From: Horticoccus luteus
GTDB taxonomy: Bacteria; Verrucomicrobiota; Verrucomicrobiia; Opitutales; Opitutaceae
Reading direction: 5' to 3'
NCBI RefSeq assembly: GCF_019464535.1
Contig: NZ_CP080507.1
Location: 3,990,001 to 4,022,000, forward strand
Length of the DNA stretch: 32,000 nt
Part shown: positions 7,726-25,441 of the stretch, in pieces
Position numbering within the stretch: the stretch's first letter is position 1
Layout of the letters: each line of letters opens with the position of its first letter
Position numbers and translations under genes: made by a program
Notes under the pieces: generated by a model
The model's input: the letters and a program-made list of their open reading frames with translations, nothing else
Databases searched by the model: none
Told to the model about the DNA's origin: nothing

Positions 7726-8286
7726 TCAAACAGCCCCGAGCAATTGCCGGAGCCGCTGGCGCGCATGCGCCACGCGCATCTCGACCGTCTTTGGCGTGGT
7801 GCCGAGAATCTGAGCGGCCTCGTGCTGGGATTTACCTTCGAGGCAGAACAAGACCAAGGCAGCCCTGAGGTTGTGGGGCAGTTTCTCAATGGCGGCTTGC
7901 AAGCGTGAAAAGCGATCCCTCTGCCCTGTTTGTTGATCGGGAGTCGGCCCCGCGTCTTCCACTTCCAACGGGGGCTGGTCGGCAGGGCCCGGCGCGTCAA
8001 GCGAGACCAACCGTTGCCGCTTGGACAGCTTGCGCCCTTCGTCCCGTGCGAGATTTAGAGCGATCGCATAGATCCAGGTTTTGACCGAGGCGCGCGGCGC
8101 AAAGGTCTTGGCCTTGAAAAAGACCCGCACAAAAGTCTCCTGCACCACATCGCGTGCGGCAGCTTCGTCCCGGAGGTAGCGAAAGACGAAATAGAACAGC
8201 GGTTCCCGGTGGCGATCGATCAGCTCATTCAGCGCCGGTTCATTGCCCGCCTGGAGTGCCTCGATTAGCGGCAGGTCGGGGTCCAC
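7726..8286 (-). CDS. ECF (sigma-70 family, RpoE-like) sigma factor
   Basis: Region 2 (LIDRHREPLFYFVFRYLRDEAAARDVVQETFVRVF...WIYAIALNLARD) and region 4 (LPHNLRAALVLFCLEGKSQHEAAQILGTTPKTVEMRVAHARQRL). Confidence 0.9.
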   Translation of the reverse strand: MDPDLPLIEALQAGNEPALNELIDRHREPLFYFVFRYLRDEAAARDVVQETFVRVFFKAKTFAPRASVKTWIYAIALNLARDEGRKLSKRQRLVSLDAPGPADQPPLEVEDAGPTPDQQTGQRDRFSRLQAAIEKLPHNLRAALVLFCLEGKSQHEAAQILGTTPKTVEMRVAHARQRLRQLLGAV

Positions 8287-18956: not shown

Positions 18957-19692
18957 TCAGTTGTTCGCGAACTCGCTCGCGAGACTCCAGAGCGCCTTGT
19001 TGAGCTTCTGGCCCTCGCTCAAGCCGCCCACCGCGCGCGTCCGGTTGCGGCGGATGCCCATGCCGGCAGTGTAGCCCATGTAGCGGTCACCGCCTCGGAT
19101 CAGGTGTTCCTGAACCACATTGAAGGTAGTCCAGAGGTCCGTGGCGGCATCGCCGTATCGCACCGGCGCCAGCAACTTCTCAGGGCTAAGGAGCTTCATG
19201 ACGGGCTGATCGGCATCCCAACGAAGGCCCGCCGCGCGCCGGGCGAACTCGACGCGGGCGGCCTGCGGGAGCTGAACCGCCTGCCACTTGGCGACGGCCT
19301 CCAGCATGCGCGGCGTGTTCTCGGCGACGGACTGTGCTGCCTTGGCGAAAGCGTCGGCGGAAATGTCCACGTGCCGGATCGAGACATGGGCAAAGTCGGC
19401 ATCCGCGACGGTCAGACCGTTGCGGCACACCAACCGATACAGGCCCGCGGCGAGGCGGCCAAGGTATCACCCAAGCTTCTCCAAGCTGGCGCCGATTTGT
19501 CGGATACGGCGATCCGCTCGGGCGAAACCCACCATCTCACCGAACTCGGCCACGCTGTCGAATTGCTCGCGGGACTCGATCCGCGCCGGTTGCGCGGTGC
19601 TTCGGTTACGCCGATTGGTGAAGCTGCACGCCTTGGTCTACATGCTCCGGCATCCCCGCGAAGCCTACCGCAGCCGCGAAGTGAGGGCGCAT
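18957..19692 (-). pseudogene. DUF932-like (conjugative-element/plasmid-associated) gene, apparently disrupted
   Basis: The C-terminal 158 aa are intact. The family-typical AGLYRLVCRNGL motif lies just after an in-frame TGA (19467-19469). Further upstream the reading frame shifts again, with a candidate ATG at 19690-19692. The family assignment is from memory of the GLFRLVCSNG signature. Confidence 0.5.
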
Positions 19693-20046
19693 TTCGTCAG
19701 ATTCGGTCTTCGGATTAGTTCGCTAGACTTCCGGCGCTTCTGCAAACGCCACGGCATCCGGCACGACGAACGCGCCGGCCGTCCTCGGGATCACGCGAGC
19801 GCGCGAGCTGCCGGCTAACCAGGGGCCAGGGGCCGGACTCGACCCCAGTTAGGCGCTGGCGGCGTTCGGGGCCGCGCGCGCCGTGGCAAAGCGTCGCAGG
19901 GAACGGCGCGCGAAGCTCCGGCGACACCCTCCAAGCCCAGCCCATCTTACGTTGCGCCCCTTCGAAGCTGATCGGGACGGAGACTTGCGCCACGGCAAGG
20001 ACGGCTGAAATCGCTCGCACCAACAACCTAACGCAGGATCAAGCCG

Positions 20047-20490
20047 CTACACTTTTGGCGGTTTGATGCTTCGCCCAATTGCCGCACCGACGGCCGCCCC
20101 GAAGGCAACGCCGACAGGACCGCCAGCCAATCCAAACAATCCGCCGAGTATCCCGCCCGCCGCGGCGTTGTCGTCACGCATTTTGCCCTTCACGGCTTTC
20201 GAGTAGGGGGCGCGACTTGTGCCATTCCATTTTCGCGCGGTTCGGGTGGTGAAATCGCTCTTGTCCCGATTGCAGCGAATACATGCTGGAAACAAGTTGT
20301 TGCGATGGTCGGTGCCGCCACATGCGCGGGGACGCGAATGTTCCACTTCCCATGATCCGCGATTCCCGAGAGACGCGTAGTTTTTGAACGACAATTTGCA
20401 GTGGCAGATATGGCAATACCCGTCGGTGCGTTCGTAGATGGTGCGGAGCAGGGTGACTTCGTAGGGCATAAGAATCGATTGCTTGGTCAA
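20047..20490 (-). CDS. HNH nuclease fused to a C-terminal glycine-zipper hydrophobic tail (147 aa)
   Basis: CHICHC...WEVEHSRPRACGGTDHRNNLFPACIRCNRDKSD (CxxC / H-N / CxxC HNH core). The tail is AAAGGILGGLFGLAGGPVGVAFGAAVGAAIG. Confidence 0.8.
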   Translation of the reverse strand: MTKQSILMPYEVTLLRTIYERTDGYCHICHCKLSFKNYASLGNRGSWEVEHSRPRACGGTDHRNNLFPACIRCNRDKSDFTTRTARKWNGTSRAPYSKAVKGKMRDDNAAAGGILGGLFGLAGGPVGVAFGAAVGAAIGRSIKPPKV

Positions 20491-20512
20491 ATCGTCCGGA
20501 TCGGCGGCGTCA

Positions 20513-21355
20513 TCAGAGTCGGGGAAACAGCAGCAATGTCAGAACTCCGAAAGGGCCGAGTCGCACCGCCTGCTCAACGATCACACAGTTTCGCGGCGAT
20601 GAGGCCGTGACATGCGCGAACCAGAAGCTTGCGGTTGATGGCGCTTCGAAAACGGGGCTCAGGCCGCCACCCGAAACCGCCTCGTGCGCGGTTCTGGATG
20701 CGAAGCCCTCCGGCAGCGCGGTGACTTCGGGTGCATTGCCGTAATCATAGCCAAGTTTTCGCAACATCGGAGAAATCGCGGGCCACGGTCGCTTGCCGGG
20801 TCGGAACATCATCGCCGCACACGGCACCGGGCACTCTTCGACGTAACGGATGGCTGTCGCTTGTGCGGAGACGTTGAAGGTGCTGCTTAGATTGAGGAGC
20901 CCTTGTAGGCCGGGCTTCTCTTTCGTCGCCGCTTTTCTGAAATCGTGCTGCGGCATCAACAGGTGGGAAGAAAATGTGTTGGCTTCCGTTTCGATCACGG
21001 AGTTGCCCGCCTTGTCGATGAACGACCGGTGCGCGGGCACCCGGCCGGATGCGAGTGCGTTCCGGTGCTCGTCGATGAAGTAGTGACCAAGTTCGTGGCC
21101 GACGGTGAAGCGTGCTCGGGTTGAACCTGGGTAATCCGTTTCCCGCACGTTGCAGTAAATGTGAAACTGCCCCCTCCGGTGTTCGAGCACGCCGTCAAAA
21201 GCGTTCCCATAGTCGCCGGTCGAAAAGGTGATGCCCTGATCCTCGATGAGCGGTGTTGGTTGCACTGGAATGACGCTCCCGACATCCGCAAAAGCGGTTT
21301 CAGCGAGGTCGGCGATCCAGCGCCGCCGAGTAACGCTCAACTCCGTGTAGGCCAT
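20513..21355 (-). CDS. ImmA/IrrE-family zinc metallopeptidase with extended C-terminal domain (280 aa)
   Basis: HEXXH motif in FTVGHELGHYFIDEH followed by EANTFSSHLLMP, typical of the family. Confidence 0.85.
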   Translation of the reverse strand: MAYTELSVTRRRWIADLAETAFADVGSVIPVQPTPLIEDQGITFSTGDYGNAFDGVLEHRRGQFHIYCNVRETDYPGSTRARFTVGHELGHYFIDEHRNALASGRVPAHRSFIDKAGNSVIETEANTFSSHLLMPQHDFRKAATKEKPGLQGLLNLSSTFNVSAQATAIRYVEECPVPCAAMMFRPGKRPWPAISPMLRKLGYDYGNAPEVTALPEGFASRTAHEAVSGGGLSPVFEAPSTASFWFAHVTASSPRNCVIVEQAVRLGPFGVLTLLLFPRL

Positions 21356-21741
21356 TAGCGTTTTTTCTTGGCCTTCGCTTCGGCGGCGGCGCGGTGCTCG
21401 TCCATCCGCTGGCGGACCTCGGCATCGATCTCGCCGCCGTTACGGGCGGCCAAGGCGAGATCTTTCGCGAGCGCCGCGCTTTCAAACGGAAGGATTTTAG
21501 AAGCTTCGACTGGCTGGTCGCTCTTTTTGCCCCGCAAAAACTGTCGAAAGCTATTCACGTCGGGCGTGGGCAGTCGGGAATCGTCGACGGCGGCTTCAAT
21601 GCGATCGATGTCTTCCGGCGTTTCGGGAAAGGCGAGGCCGTCCTGCTTCATCATGTCGCGCAGGGCACGCTTCGTAGCGGCGAGGGTGGCTTTGTTCGTT
21701 GGAATGGGCTTGTTCATGTCTTTCGGGTGCTGACGGGGCAT
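21355..21741 (-). CDS. Hypothetical protein (128 aa), partner of the ImmA-like protease
   Basis: The ORF is translationally coupled to the protease gene (TAATG overlap at 21353-21357). It is a charged helical protein with a Lys-rich tail. I recognise no HTH. Confidence 0.55.
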   Translation of the reverse strand: MPRQHPKDMNKPIPTNKATLAATKRALRDMMKQDGLAFPETPEDIDRIEAAVDDSRLPTPDVNSFRQFLRGKKSDQPVEASKILPFESAALAKDLALAARNGGEIDAEVRQRMDEHRAAAEAKAKKKR

Positions 21742-21757
21742 TGGCGGACGAGGGGGA

Positions 21758-22474
21758 TTACTCGTTATCGAGCACGTGTTGCTTCATGCGCTCCAAGAGG
21801 CGGGAGCGTTGAGTTCGAAGTGAAATCTTGGTCATACCCAGCTCGGCGCAGAGTGCTTCCAAGACAGCCTTCGGCATGACGGTTTGCCCGGTGCGGCGGT
21901 CGTAATACTGCATGGTGTTGTAGAGAATCGCTTGGTCGTGGGGTGCCAGGCCGGAAACGAACGCACGAATGAGTGCGATCCGGCGGTGGGTCGGGGGCTC
22001 GGCCGCTTCGGTGTCCACCGGGTCGAGCGCCACGATGGCGCCCACGGTCTCGACATCGAATTCACAACGCTCTTCGCGCTCGGCGTATTCGCTGCGATAG
22101 GCGTCGATGCAGACGTTCTTCAGAATACAATAGAGCCAGAACTTGACGTGCTTGGTTTTCTCCGCGTCGGAGAGTTCCTTTTTTAACGGTCCGAACGTCT
22201 TCGCCGCGCGGAGAGCTTTCTGGAAGGTTTTCTTAACCAAATCCTCATGATTCTGGCGGTAGAGAAGAAAGCTTTTAGCGCACCAGCCGGTCATCTTTTT
22301 GGAGTGGCGCCGATACAACTCGGCCGCGGCGTCTTCGGCCATGATGGGCTCGTCGTCATCGAATCCCATGTAGGTCACCAGGGATTCATCCGTCTCGTTT
22401 TCCATGACTACTTTGTTTGCCGCACGTTCGGGAGGCTCTCGCTGAAGTTTTGGGAGGGATAAACCGTTCATCAC
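21758..22474 (-). CDS. Divergent ECF-like sigma-70 family protein
   Basis: Region-2-like ELYRRHSKKMTGWCAKSF...KFWLYCILKNVCIDAYR and region-4-like LAPHDQAILYNTMQYYD...EALCAELGMTKISLRTQRSRLLERMK. The start is ambiguous (22474/22471 or ATG at 22405). Confidence 0.7.
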   Translation of the reverse strand: MMNGLSLPKLQREPPERAANKVVMENETDESLVTYMGFDDDEPIMAEDAAAELYRRHSKKMTGWCAKSFLLYRQNHEDLVKKTFQKALRAAKTFGPLKKELSDAEKTKHVKFWLYCILKNVCIDAYRSEYAEREERCEFDVETVGAIVALDPVDTEAAEPPTHRRIALIRAFVSGLAPHDQAILYNTMQYYDRRTGQTVMPKAVLEALCAELGMTKISLRTQRSRLLERMKQHVLDNE

Positions 22475-22521
22475 TACTCTAACGAGAAGGCGTTACAGGG
22501 GACCGGCGAAAGGCGGCGTGT

Positions 22522-22535
22522 AACGGGGTCCCGTT
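22522..22535. promoter_or_regulatory. Palindrome AACGGG-GT-CCCGTT in the divergent control region (candidate operator)
   Basis: Perfect 6-bp arms. A related half-repeat GTTACAGGGGACC lies at 22492-22504, compared with GTAACGGGGTCC at 22520-22531. Confidence 0.35.
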
Positions 22536-22590
22536 GTAGGGGTGAAGGACAATCAGTCCTCTCTTTCAAACCATTAACCGAGGCAACACT

Positions 22591-22923
22591 ATGTCAGACA
22601 AGAATCAACCCAACGCCGGCCCCGATGCCGGTCTCGTCGACGAGGTCGATCTGGAGCAGGTCGCTAAAGCGGGCGGAAAGCCGCCGAAGGCCAAGCGTTA
22701 CCGCATCCGCATCGACGATCAATACTACGTCGTGAGCCAAGGCTCCATGACTGGCGCCGAGTTGCTGAAACTCGCCAGTAAAACGCCCCCGGAAAATTAC
22801 ATTCTGACCCAAAAGCTCCGGGGGGGCGTGATCAAGACTATCGGCCTGTCGGATGTCGTGGATTTCACCACGCCCGGCATCGAGCGTTTCAACACCCTGC
22901 CGCGGCAGGTGCAGGAGGGTTGA
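22591..22923 (+). CDS. Ubiquitin-like beta-grasp protein ('multiubiquitin'-type), C-terminus ends in Gly
   Basis: RYRIRIDDQYYVVSQGSMTGAELLKLASKTPPENYILTQKLRGGVIKTIGLSDVVDFTTPGIERFNTL matches the multiubiquitin-domain pattern as I remember it. The last codons are Q-E-G-stop. A GAGG Shine-Dalgarno lies 8 nt upstream. Confidence 0.7.
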   Translation: MSDKNQPNAGPDAGLVDEVDLEQVAKAGGKPPKAKRYRIRIDDQYYVVSQGSMTGAELLKLASKTPPENYILTQKLRGGVIKTIGLSDVVDFTTPGIERFNTLPRQVQEG

Positions 22924-22928
22924 AGCCC

Positions 22929-23312
22929 ATGAGGCATGATTTTTCTTTGCCCGAGGAGGACGAGGAAAGCCTCAATGCCTTGGGCATCCCATGGGAAACG
23001 ATCCGTGACGGGGGCAACCAATGGTTGCTCCTTCACGAGATGCCGTTTCGTGAGGGCTTCAACCATCGCACGGGGTCCGTTGCCGTGCAGATTCCGCCCA
23101 GTTATCCGACCGCTGGCCTCGATATGGCCTATTTCTTTCCCCATCTAGCAAGGCTCGACGGGAAGACTATCGGGCAAACTCAGTGCAAGCAGCCGATTGA
23201 CGGTAAGCAATGGCAGCGGTGGTCCCGGCACTACTCCTGGGTGCCGGGCGTGCACAGCGTCTCAACTCATGTGGTCCTCATCCATCGGTGGCTGGAAGCC
23301 GCCACAAACTAA
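22929..23312 (+). CDS. Prokaryotic E2/UBC-like protein (family-E-like)
   Basis: PPSYPTAGLDMAYFFPHLARLDG...QCKQPIDGKQWQRWSRH matches my memory of the prokaryotic E2 family found with JAB-E1 and multiubiquitin genes. GGAGG lies 10 nt upstream of the ATG at 22929. An alternative TTG at 22920 overlaps the Ubl stop. Confidence 0.7.
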   Translation: MRHDFSLPEEDEESLNALGIPWETIRDGGNQWLLLHEMPFREGFNHRTGSVAVQIPPSYPTAGLDMAYFFPHLARLDGKTIGQTQCKQPIDGKQWQRWSRHYSWVPGVHSVSTHVVLIHRWLEAATN

Positions 23313-24712
23313 TGCTTCGTCAACCCGAGATCATTCTCCGCCTTACGGCGACCCAGCACGACCAACTCAAGCGAACCCTCTTTCCCGGTGACGGCAAAGA
23401 ATCGGTCGCGGTGGCGCTCTGCGGCACGCATCGTAGCGCCCAACGCACCGTGCTCAGCGTGCATCGGATCAACGCCGTGCCGGACGAAAGTTGCACCGAG
23501 CGGAGTGCGGTTTCCGTCGTTTGGCCGACCGAACCACAGGTGCCGCTCTTCTCAGAGGGCGCGAGAAAAAAGATGGTGGTGCTGAAAATTCACAGTCATC
23601 CGTCGGGATTTCCCCGGTTTTCTGGCCTGGATGACAAAGCCGACCGTGCCTTGCTCGGGAGCTTGCTCAAGCTCGCGCCGAACGAAATCGGCCATGCGAG
23701 TGCCGTGATGCTGCCCGAGGGGAAAATCTTCGCGCGTCTCCTCGGGGGTGAGGGGCGATTTTCGAAAATCGCTCGCGTGGTGGTCGTGGGCGATGAAATC
23801 GTCAGCTTTGAGGACAGCCGTTCGATCAAGGGAGCGCTGTTTGATGAAGCCTTCCTGCGGACGCAGCAGGCATTCGGTGCCAGAACGGCTTCGATGCTCT
23901 CGAAAATGCGCGTTGGCGTCGTGGGTTGTTCTGGCACGGGGAGCTGGGTCGTCGAAATGCTGTCTCGACTCGGTGTTGGTGAACTCGTGCTCGTTGATCC
24001 CGATGTGATCGAGCGGAAGAACCTCAACCGTATCCTCAACAGCGTGGCGAGCGACGCCGCGGCGGCGCGCCCCAAAGTGAAGGTGTTCGCCCGTGCCATC
24101 CGACGCCTGGGTCTTGGCACGAAGGTGACGAGTTATCAGACAGACATTCTCCAGCGCAAAGTTGTCCACTCCTTGGCGGGCTGTGATTTTCTGTTCGGTT
24201 GCGTCGATTCTGCCGATGGCCGGGACGCGCTGAATCGGGTCGCTGCCTTTTACATCATCCCCTACGTTGATGTGGGTGTGCTCCTGCAAGCGGATGGGAA
24301 AGGCAGCGTGCAACAGGTCTGCGCCGCGGTTCACTATTTGATTCCCGACGGCTCAAGCCTCCTCAGCCGCCGCGTCATCACTGCTGAGCAGGTGCGCGCT
24401 GAATCGCTACGCCGGCGCTCTCCCGATCAATATGCGGCCTTGCGGAAGGAAGGCTACATTCAGGGCGTAAATGTCGATAGCCCGGCCGTGATCAGCATCA
24501 ACGGGTTTGCGGCGAGTCATGCGGTGAACGAGATGCTGGCCCGGATTCATCCGTTCCGACGCGATGCCAACGGCGAATTTCGTGCGCAGACTTTTTCGTT
24601 GTCTGACGGTGCGTGGTTGAGGATCGAAGACGGTCCGGTATGCCCGTTTCTTAGCAAGCGGACCGGTCGTGGAGATTGTGAGCCGATGCTCGATAACTCG
24701 GAACTGTCATGA
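23312..24712 (+). CDS. JAMM/JAB metallopeptidase domain fused to ThiF/E1-like adenylyltransferase (466 aa)
   Basis: Exact JAMM motif HSHPSGFPRFSGLD (H-x-H-x7-S-x2-D) from 23591. E1 Rossmann MRVGVVGCSGTGSWVVEMLSRLGVGELVLVDPDVIERKNLNR and FLFGCVDSADGRDALN. TAATG overlap with the E2 gene. Confidence 0.85.
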   Translation: MLRQPEIILRLTATQHDQLKRTLFPGDGKESVAVALCGTHRSAQRTVLSVHRINAVPDESCTERSAVSVVWPTEPQVPLFSEGARKKMVVLKIHSHPSGFPRFSGLDDKADRALLGSLLKLAPNEIGHASAVMLPEGKIFARLLGGEGRFSKIARVVVVGDEIVSFEDSRSIKGALFDEAFLRTQQAFGARTASMLSKMRVGVVGCSGTGSWVVEMLSRLGVGELVLVDPDVIERKNLNRILNSVASDAAAARPKVKVFARAIRRLGLGTKVTSYQTDILQRKVVHSLAGCDFLFGCVDSADGRDALNRVAAFYIIPYVDVGVLLQADGKGSVQQVCAAVHYLIPDGSSLLSRRVITAEQVRAESLRRRSPDQYAALRKEGYIQGVNVDSPAVISINGFAASHAVNEMLARIHPFRRDANGEFRAQTFSLSDGAWLRIEDGPVCPFLSKRTGRGDCEPMLDNSELS

Positions 24713-25065
24713 CCAAGAAATTCCTGCGCTGGATCGAACGCCTCTTTCGCACGACCAAGGATAGCGCCGAGGCGTTCCAATGGGCCAAGGTTGAACATTT
24801 GCCGACGCCGTTGGCGGAGAAAAAAATTTACGTGCTGGGAGACGACGAATGTGAATGGGCGGCTGCGATGGCCTGTCCTTGCGGCTGTGGATCGACCATT
24901 CACCTAAGCTTGGCTCCCGATAGTCGGCCCACTTGGCGCGTGCGGCGTCACCGCAACGGCACGGTCAGTCTCTTGCCCTCGGTTTGGAGAACCGTCGGCT
25001 GCCGGAGCCATTTTGTGCTCTACAAGGGCCGAATCTTTTGGTGCCGCAACGAGCCTTTCGAATAG
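24709..25065 (+). CDS. Small Cys/His-rich protein (118 aa), DUF6527-like
   Basis: C56-P-C58-G-C60 cluster plus C98-x-x-H101 and C112. ATGA overlap with the E1 stop. The family name is from memory of this gene neighbourhood. Confidence 0.65.
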   Translation: MTKKFLRWIERLFRTTKDSAEAFQWAKVEHLPTPLAEKKIYVLGDDECEWAAAMACPCGCGSTIHLSLAPDSRPTWRVRRHRNGTVSLLPSVWRTVGCRSHFVLYKGRIFWCRNEPFE

Positions 25066-25117: not shown

Positions 25118-25441
25118 TCACTGCCCTGCGGTCATGGTGTTGGTGCTCCCGGGGTTCATGGTGGTCGCCGTGAGGTTGGCGTTTGTCGTCAGAGGGTTAG
25201 TGTTGGTCGTCGGAAGGTTTAGGTTTGTCGTCAGAGGGTTAAGGTTTGTCGCCACGAGGTTTGTATTGGTCGCCACGGGGTTAGTGTTTGTCGCCGGAAG
25301 GTTAGTGTTGGTCGTCGGAGGGTTAGTTTTGGGCGACGGAGGGTTAGTGTTGGTCGTCCCGAGGTTAGTGTTGGTCGCCACAAGGGTCAGATTGGCACAA
25401 AACGCCGGAATAAGGGCTCCGCCCGAAAGCGTCTGTGCCAA
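25118..25441 (-). CDS. Possible Thr/Asn-rich heptad-repeat protein encoded by the 21-bp repeat
   Basis: The minus frame reads ...LPATNTNPVATNTNLVATNLNPLTTNLNLPTTNTN... using GC-ending codons. However, it only has a TTG (25439-25441) or an internal GTG start and no clear signal peptide. Confidence 0.3.
   Translation of the reverse strand: MAQTLSGGALIPAFCANLTLVATNTNLGTTNTNPPSPKTNPPTTNTNLPATNTNPVATNTNLVATNLNPLTTNLNLPTTNTNPLTTNANLTATTMNPGSTNTMTAGQ
25153..25404. repeat. About 12 tandem copies of a degenerate 21-bp unit (consensus GGTTAGTGTTGGTCGTCGGAG)
   Basis: Units start at 25153, 25174, 25195, 25216, 25237, 25258, 25279, 25300, 25321, 25342, 25363 and 25384, with exact 21-bp phasing. Confidence 0.9.

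Follow-up and report, generated by a model that had tools for sequence, protein, structure and literature searches.

We examined a 32,000-nt stretch of the Horticoccus luteus genome (contig NZ_CP080507.1, positions 3,990,001 to 4,022,000; hereafter the window, numbered from its first letter), in which four minus-strand genes diverge from a plus-strand operon for ubiquitin-like conjugation, the Bub operon. In order of transcription, the four encode a sigma-like protein, a small protein, a protease of the CapP type and an HNH nuclease. Two copies of a promoter-like element lie between the divergent operons, one facing each. We refer to the first three genes as the module. The minus-strand genes and the two elements are located as follows.

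22519–22550, plus strand: promoter-like element facing bubA, TGTAACGGGGTCCCGTTGTAGGGGTGAAGGAC; block invariant in six related loci
22466–22497, minus strand: promoter-like element facing the sigma gene, TGTAACGCCTTCTCGTTAGAGTAGTGATGAAC; block invariant in six related loci
21758–22405, minus strand: sigma gene with corrected start ATG 22405, 215 aa, from homologue alignment A7 (longest form 21758–22474, 238 aa)
21355–21717, minus strand: small-protein gene with corrected start ATG 21717, 120 aa, from a homologue alignment (longest form 21355–21741, 128 aa)
20513–21355, minus strand: CapP-type M78 protease gene, 280 aa
20047–20469, minus strand: HNH nuclease gene with most likely start ATG 20469, 140 aa, as in related loci L007 and L008 (longest form 20047–20490)

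A preliminary description of this DNA gave the spacing of the four genes as 16 bp, a TAATG overlap and 22 bp, which is right for the longest open reading frames (ORFs), and placed them 116 bp from the divergent Multi_ubiq gene at 22591 (bubA). That distance also holds for the longest ORF; moving the sigma start to ATG 22405 makes the intergenic region 185 bp. The N-terminal extensions of some sigma homologues are not conserved in alignment A7, and the GTG at 22474 that opens the 238-aa form falls inside the conserved promoter-like block, on the letters GTGATG, which fits the 215-aa start. All 20 of 20 small-protein homologues open with MNKP..., and with the start corrected to ATG 21717 the gap between the small-protein and sigma genes is 40 bp. 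At its other end, the small-protein stop overlaps the capP start. For the HNH gene, the related sequences make ATG 20469 the most likely start, rather than TTG 20490.

An HTH-less partner of CapP is coupled to a sigma factor in surveyed loci

In E. coli, CapP is a protease activated by single-stranded DNA, and CapH is an Xre helix-turn-helix (HTH) repressor that CapP cuts at F82/R83, derepressing the cyclic oligonucleotide-based antiphage signaling system (CBASS) (Lau 2022, bioRxiv 10.1101/2022.04.27.489752). The window copy of the small protein encoded just upstream of capP has no match in Pfam or NCBIfam and matches the PADLOC capH profile weakly (E 0.0035). A word-indexed search returned only 21 close homologues, and an exhaustive profile search returned a family of 158 clusters, nearly all of them 100–130 aa long and matched over their full length. 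An alignment of 70 family members (A2) has two conserved motifs, G-x-x-F-P-x-T-x-E-D-V near the N-terminus and LAxAAR(N/E)GxxIxxExxxxMxxDR near the C-terminus. None of the 70 matches a Pfam HTH, 40 of the 70 match PADLOC capH weakly, and an AlphaFold2 (AF2) model of the small protein contains no HTH fold, bearing out the preliminary description, which had seen no recognisable HTH in the protein coupled to the protease.

The AF2 model of the small protein has five helices (residues 20–33, 42–51, 62–69, 89–101 and 107–127) joined by long linkers, with a predicted local distance difference test score (pLDDT) of 85 and a predicted template modelling score (pTM) of 0.37. It has no fold match in the PDB, and a PDB sequence search with the protein returned nothing significant. 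Helices on long linkers, with high pLDDT and low pTM, would be the look of a protein that wraps around a partner. The small protein has no Cys and both of its termini are basic. It ends in two helices and has an invariant Arg (R100), with no significant similarity to the CapH C-terminus, and we keep the resemblance to that region as a motif analogy only.

In the hybrid proteins P0024 and P0028, an Xre HTH and a C-terminal segment follow the N-terminal ~80 residues typical of the family. P0024 is encoded at L088 (1504–2109), between a confirmed sigma gene (TIGR02937 E 4e-9) and the next gene, and is divergent from a Multi_ubiq gene with the same promoter elements. Because P0024 sits just after a confirmed sigma, it is the N-terminal module that is linked to sigma. 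The two hybrids may be evolutionary intermediates between CapH and an anti-sigma-like form. P0042, a 2123-aa repeat protein that also matched the small-protein profile, was rejected as a low-complexity resemblance only.

To survey the genes that accompany CapP, we ran a CapP alignment against a single genome from each species, yielding 80 genomic loci, and searched the locus ORFs with hidden Markov models (HMMs) built for this analysis, using a sigma cut-off of E ≤ 1e-3. At every locus where the gene directly upstream of capP belongs to the A2 family (37 of 37), it is itself immediately preceded by a sigma gene of the extracytoplasmic function (ECF) type. The other 43 CapP loci have no ECF-like sigma at this cut-off. 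Six of these 43 were set aside (contig ends, short ORFs, a duplicate locus), leaving 37 testable partners, of which 35 are Xre HTH proteins (HTH_3) and all 37 match PADLOC capH strongly (best 5e-32). Elsewhere in the window (7726–8286, minus strand), the sigma HMM also picks up a further ECF-type sigma gene, unrelated to that of the cassette (E 2e-24), and the negatives at the 43 loci therefore count.

The two HTH-less exceptions, L047 (Nitrospira) and L062 (Flavobacteriaceae), each have a ~200-aa protein encoded upstream. The upstream protein of L062 matches TIGR02937 with E 1.4e-6, as does the equivalent protein in L183 (E 1.2e-5); that of L047 does not match this profile. Both the L047 and L062 proteins were negative by hhalign against the close-homologue sigma alignment A7 and scored marginally with an HMM derived from the survey loci (sig3). 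Across the surveyed loci, the HTH-less A2 family and the sigma factor are strictly coupled.

Module loci were found in Opitutaceae, Phycisphaerae, Kiritimatiellae, Chthoniobacterales, Acidobacteriota, Anaerolineae and many Bacteroidota, and a sigma gene lies upstream in 4 of 80 CapP-bearing viral contigs. More divergent modules are present at L047 (6709–8675), L062 (6840–8621), L183 (3111–4820), and at ~4860–6900 in L090, L091 and L104. The family HMM does not detect their small proteins, which still have an FRN(L/E) or NRNEG motif; at L047 the sigma-like protein has no profile match.

A duplicated promoter-like element accompanies the module

The two promoter-like blocks between the sigma gene and bubA are divergent copies of one ~30-nt element, reading TGTAACGGGGTCCCGTTGTAGGGGTGAAGG from 22519 onward on the plus strand and TGTAACGCCTTCTCGTTAGAGTAGTGATG from 22497 downward on the minus strand. 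The element is unchanged among six relatives; the intergenic flanks vary. Exact TGTAACG-N6-CGTW sites occur in the 32-kb window only at these two positions, and the consensus across phyla is TGT[CA]ACG[CG]TT-N3-4-(C)GT[AT]. A divergent GTMACG pair within 300 bp before the sigma gene was found at 19 of 40 non-redundant module loci, where shuffles predict 0.14, and 13 of the 19 fall outside the window's close family. At canonical CapH+CapP loci we found no such pair (0 of 42). We conclude that the duplicated element is specific to the sigma/small protein/CapP module, as compared with canonical loci.

Beyond the positions used to select it, the element has a T at +15 that carries 1.3 bits and, from +24 to +27, a weak TGA(A/G) block. 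A scan of the region for canonical sigma-70 promoters gave no matches. TGTAAC is identical to the −35 hexamer of B. subtilis sigmaX, and (C/T)TGA resembles the sigmaE −10. TGTAAC and CGTT are 7 nt apart, which rules them out as a standard ECF −35/−10 pair. Taking the weak TGA(A/G) block as the −10 instead gives a spacer of ~18 nt, and leaves unexplained why CGTW, which would lie within that spacer, is better conserved.

The sigma factor and the protease

The window sigma is a divergent ECF-like sigma factor of the sigma-70 family. Its 215 residues match Pfam Sigma70_r2 with E 9e-9 (35.5 bits, against a cut-off of 24), include the region 2 motif FWLYCILKNVCIDAYR, and align with TIGR02937 (sigma70-ECF) over positions 1–164 of 165 (E 1.6e-8). 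C-terminal helices are visible in its AF2 model (pLDDT 85), and the best whole-chain PDB matches returned by Foldseek are all ECF sigmas, with probability 1.0. The top matches include SigW/RsiW, RpoE/NepR, CnrH/CnrY and sigmaE/RseA, many of them solved with an anti-sigma. Profile, alignment and fold matches thus agree with the first assignment of the DNA-recognition partner as sigma-70/ECF-like. The sigma's N-terminus aligns with region 2.1 of ordinary ECF sigmas and lacks any conserved pro-sequence.

The protease is a CapP-type ImmA/IrrE (M78) metallopeptidase with full-length CapP architecture, comprising the peptidase, a linker and a GAF-like C-terminal domain. Residues 14–277 match positions 5–241 of the 242 in the PADLOC capP profile (E 3.4e-43), and Pfam Peptidase_M78 is matched with E 5e-13. 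Its sole PDB sequence match is CapP 7T5T (E 1.9e-9, residues 60–252). The HELGH motif at residues 87–91 and E124 are invariant in alignment A3. In the insertion between H91 and E124 (CapP residues 92–124) there is no cysteine that could serve as a cysteine switch; His109 and Ser111 in the insertion are invariant across 24 homologues. The switch is present in only part of the CapP family (Lau Table S1, bioRxiv 10.1101/2022.04.27.489752).

The Bub operon, the HNH gene and the borders of the cassette

On the plus strand lies a Type I-like Bub (6E/DUF6527) operon of four genes.

22591–22923, plus strand: bubA, Multi_ubiq ubiquitin-like protein, 110 aa, ending in Gly (...QVQEG*); PF14452 E 3e-13
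22920–23312, plus strand: bubB, E2-like Prok-E2_E protein, 130 aa; PF14462 E 6e-35
23312–24712, plus strand: bubCD, JAB peptidase–E1 (ThiF) fusion, ~466 aa; ThiF E 3e-29, Prok-JAB E 1e-4
24709–25065, plus strand: bubE (DUF6527), 118 aa; PF20137 E 3e-21

The bubCD ORF extends to 23210; its homologues are 464–466 aa long and abut the E2 gene. BubE has been described as a serine protease (PMC11601596). bubA is syntenic in L001, L003, L005, L007 and L008. In the window bubA and bubB are separate ORFs with a 4-nt overlap; the two genes are fused in L011 and L012 and split in L026 and L027. BubE and E1 are carried at no fewer than 10 genomic module loci, and among 22 other module loci at least 12 have a CD-NTase together with CBASS E1-E2, JAB, 2TM, patatin or HORMA genes. 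Because the module adjoins either Bub or CBASS operons, it is a cargo-independent regulator, as CapH+CapP is.

The HNH protein matches Pfam PF01844 (E 7e-6), with an HNH beta-beta-alpha-metal motif that includes CxxC pairs (CHICHC...EVEH...HRNN...CIRCN) and a C-terminal glycine-zipper tail (weak Gly-zipper matches). The preliminary description had spoken of a four-gene set, of which the HNH gene is not a fixed member: the gene is the last of the sigma operon in the window, L007 and L008, is absent from L001, L003 and L005, and thus is missing from three of the six closest lineages. In L169 (5001–5423) the gene after bubE, at the far end of the cassette, encodes a homologue of 61% identity. Homologues are also the first gene of CBASS operons in L183 (4947–5414, with a regulator like the CapP trio), L180 (4983–5396, with an HTH-M78 fusion) and L173 (5001–5420), and of a Pycsar operon with a WYL regulator in L174 (5001–5420). 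A search against plasmid records gave no match. Given its optional presence and its recurrence in CBASS and Pycsar operons, we regard the HNH gene as a recurrent accessory of Cap-regulated immune operons and not as part of the switch.

The segment from 20045 to 25050 recurs as a discrete cassette between unrelated flanks, with nucleotide identity of 92% in L008 and 77% in L007. L001 shares only 20513–25052, that is, the cassette without HNH, and homology stops there at the capP stop. The two operons, whose co-occurrence had been put forward as a test of their connection, are found together in five independent contexts, travelling as one cassette with seven-gene synteny and sharp borders. Window 20045–25050 is a mobile immune cassette that combines a Type I-like Bub operon with a three-protein variant of CapH+CapP, the DNA-damage regulator.

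G+C content is 0.57–0.60 over the cassette (window 20000–25000) and 0.62–0.67 in the flanks, and its closest relatives, P0171 (98% identity) and L008 (97%), are labelled Lacipirellulaceae and Opitutaceae, respectively. The low G+C and these relatives fit a recent transfer between phyla of the PVC group (Planctomycetota/Verrucomicrobiota). TrwC/TrwB and RadC genes near the cassette in relatives L001 and L007 suggest a conjugative-element setting. On the HNH side, a DUF932 homologue (18957–19433 and 19715–20026) covers profile positions 87–227 only; the homologue adjoining the cassette in L001 is 359 aa long, and the window gene is probably truncated or frameshifted. On the other side, ~100 bp past the right border, begins a tandem array (25162–25379) of ~9.7 copies of the 21-bp unit GGTTAGTGTTTGTCGTCAGAG. 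The array is not shared with L008, and an ORF across it encodes TNTN repeats.

Proposed mechanism and alternatives

We propose that the small protein is probably an anti-sigma factor cleavable by CapP, and that the sigma it frees transcribes both its own operon and the Bub operon. At rest, the 120-aa helical protein would hold the ECF-like sigma inactive through its N-terminal ~70 residues. CapP would then become active, possibly in response to single-stranded DNA arising from damage or infection, which is the activator in the E. coli system already characterised, and would cut the small protein within the conserved C-terminal LAxAAR(N/E)G helix. The predicted cut lies at A99/R100 of the 128-aa ORF, which corresponds to A91/R92 of the 120-aa protein. 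Freed sigma would bring RNA polymerase to the two divergent elements, presumably in the register TGTAACG-N6-CGTT-N7-GTGA, turning on its own operon, with positive feedback and with HNH where present, as well as bubA–bubE. A protease-gated sigma switch, with the 128-aa protein as anti-sigma or substrate, had been suggested before; comparative genomics, through the 37-of-37 coupling and the cis element, favours it.

The module is spread over Planctomycetota, Verrucomicrobiota, Acidobacteriota, Bacteroidota, Chloroflexota and some viral contigs. More broadly, it might constitute a portable sigma switch, in which a damage-sensing CapP cleaves a soluble anti-sigma of a kind not classified before, in place of an HTH repressor, and so frees an auto-amplifying sigma for Bub or CBASS operons, acting at an unusually compact promoter of the form TGTMACG-N6-CGTW...TGAR; for this wider proposal we put the chances at about even.

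Several observations weigh against the anti-sigma proposal. The two best-conserved blocks of the element are 7 nt apart, where 16–17 nt would be expected between an ECF −35 and −10, and in the window family the elements are partly palindromic (AACG-N6-CGTT), as would suit a dimeric DNA binder. On TIGR02937 the sigma scores 34.3, under the cut-off of 42.9. The preliminary description had looked to profiles of sigma regions 2 and 4 for a check on the assignment; Sigma70_r2 was matched above its cut-off, but Pfam region 4 had no match in the window sigma at E ≤ 0.1. Family, PDB sequence and fold searches detected neither an anti-sigma fold nor an HxxxCxxC zinc motif in the small protein. We also rejected homology of the small-protein family to canonical CapH (hhalign probability 0.2%) and a homologous CapH C-terminal domain, for which the HMM gave the family scores no higher than those of shuffled or reversed sequences. 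These two negatives leave the motif series FFRD, FRNLE, MFRNEG, LNRNEG and AARNGG as the sole basis of the predicted cleavage site.

The palindrome bears on a different role for the small protein. It could be a DNA-binding repressor, a CapH with an unrecognised fold, that sits on AACG-N6-CGTT until CapP relieves repression, with sigma supplying promoter specificity. The imperfect palindrome of the window family has half-sites one helical turn apart, the 40 of 70 family members that weakly match PADLOC capH point the same way, and so do the basic termini. However, no DNA-binding fold is predicted for the small protein, and in Bacteroidota the copies of the element are not palindromic but clearly asymmetric. 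The hybrids add an Xre HTH to the N-terminal module, which would be superfluous if DNA binding lay in that module, and a repressor leaves unexplained why sigma is present exactly where the HTH is absent. We consider this explanation unlikely. It is also conceivable, though we find it rather improbable, that CapP acts on sigma itself, activating or destroying it, with the small protein serving as an adaptor, inhibitor or sensor for CapP. The TAATG overlap of the small-protein gene with capP suggests a protein pair, and the computed evidence does not single out which protein is cleaved. Yet the sigma has no conserved pro-sequence, the N-terminal extensions of its homologues are not conserved, and in CapH+CapP, DdrO/IrrE and ImmR/ImmA the substrate is the small protein encoded upstream (Lau 2022).

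Two further explanations would uncouple the cassette sigma from the Bub operon. In one, the element would be used by another host factor such as sigma-54, or by a host repressor, and the cassette sigma would regulate something else. Sigma-54 has the consensus TGGCACG-N4-TTGC, and compact blocks 7 nt apart do resemble a −24/−12 promoter more than a −35/−10 promoter. But every copy has GT in place of the GG of the sigma-54 consensus, there is no gene for an enhancer-binding ATPase, and the element follows the module across phyla, is absent from 42 canonical loci and precedes the sigma's own gene, making this very unlikely. The other holds that the four genes are a toxin–antitoxin-like or merely adjacent set with no regulatory link to Bub. 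PDB entry 7T5T names CapP a 'toxin', and HNH nucleases are common toxins. Against this, seven-gene synteny is kept in five unrelated contexts with sharp cassette borders, HNH is dispensable, and the shared promoter element faces both operons; we give such an arrangement hardly any credence.

Published context and implications

CapH+CapP has been found beside 6E ubiquitin-like operons, and 24 CBASS systems encode CapH+CapP 'alongside a predicted sigma70-family sigma factor', marked 'Sigma-70 present' in Table S1, with no mechanism given (bioRxiv 10.1101/2022.04.27.489752). CapH+CapP also occurs in 168 of 544 Bub operons (PMC11601596), and Dataset EV1 of PMC13373217, on regulators of Bub operons, does not mention sigma. 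A full-text literature search returned no description of a CapP/ImmA-type protease acting on an anti-sigma factor. The initial statement that no described system has this gene combination was therefore too broad, as the protease/small-protein pair is a regulator of the CapH+CapP type whose link to Bub and co-presence with sigma-70 are published. For three findings we could trace no published counterpart: the family of partners that lack an HTH, the strictness of its coupling to sigma, and the dedicated, duplicated promoter element.

CapH+CapP is one of the few understood ties between immune-operon expression and DNA damage, and its sigma-containing subset has been noted and left unexplained. 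If the anti-sigma proposal is true, the logic in this subset shifts from derepression to sigma-driven activation with positive feedback, giving a sharper and possibly irreversible switch. It would also add a new family of soluble anti-sigmas and a new class of protease for their removal. Each cassette would carry an orthogonal sigma/promoter pair, which would explain function after transfer across phyla and could provide useful synthetic parts. For Bub operons, whose role is still sought, it would name DNA damage as the inducer, point to a promoter and offer the HNH/glycine-zipper protein as a candidate effector.

Comparison with known systems

Like the published Type I Bub (6E.1/DUF6527) operons, the window operon encodes Multi_ubiq, Prok-E2_E, a JAB-E1 fusion and DUF6527 in the same order (PMC11601596). 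All Type I operons are said to encode a BubA-BubB fusion and a JAB domain that cleaves after Gly (PMC11601596); in the window, by contrast, the two proteins have genes of their own, and the BubA sequence as encoded ends in Gly.

The arrangement of the regulator is that of CapH+CapP in E. coli MS115-1, where the CapP-family gene likewise overlaps a small upstream gene and the pair is divergent from the immune operon. Canonical CapH, however, is an Xre HTH protein with a tetramerising C-terminal domain, whereas the window partner has neither an HTH nor detectable CapH homology. Sigma is always present in the module, and the output would be activation by freed sigma instead of derepression. Unlike some CapPs, the window protease has no Cys in its cysteine-switch insertion. 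IrrE/DdrO of Deinococcus and ImmA/ImmR of ICEBs1 and phage also place an M78 protease gene beside a regulator, as in the window, where we propose cleavage as well; in those systems the protease cleaves the neighbouring HTH repressor on DNA damage and no sigma is involved.

Anti-sigma proteolysis is familiar from RseA/sigmaE of E. coli and RsiW/sigmaW of B. subtilis, in which the anti-sigma is co-transcribed with its ECF sigma and proteolysed, which sets the sigma free, and the sigma operon is auto-activated. RseA and RsiW are membrane proteins cut by the site-1 and site-2 envelope proteases, whereas the window candidate is a soluble protein of 120 aa whose own operon encodes the candidate protease, a cytoplasmic enzyme of the ImmA/IrrE type.

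In type III-E CRISPR, the protease Csx29 cleaves Csx30, whose N-terminal domain binds the sigma factor RpoE (PMC9825189). Unlike the window CapP, Csx29 has a caspase-like CHAT domain activated by target RNA; Csx30 is unrelated to the small protein, and the RpoE targets in type III-E are not the immune operon itself, as they would be here. Like this Craspase (PMC9825189), the module as we propose it would combine an immune protease, a small anti-sigma-like substrate and an ECF sigma, and would tie the sensing of a threat to transcription.

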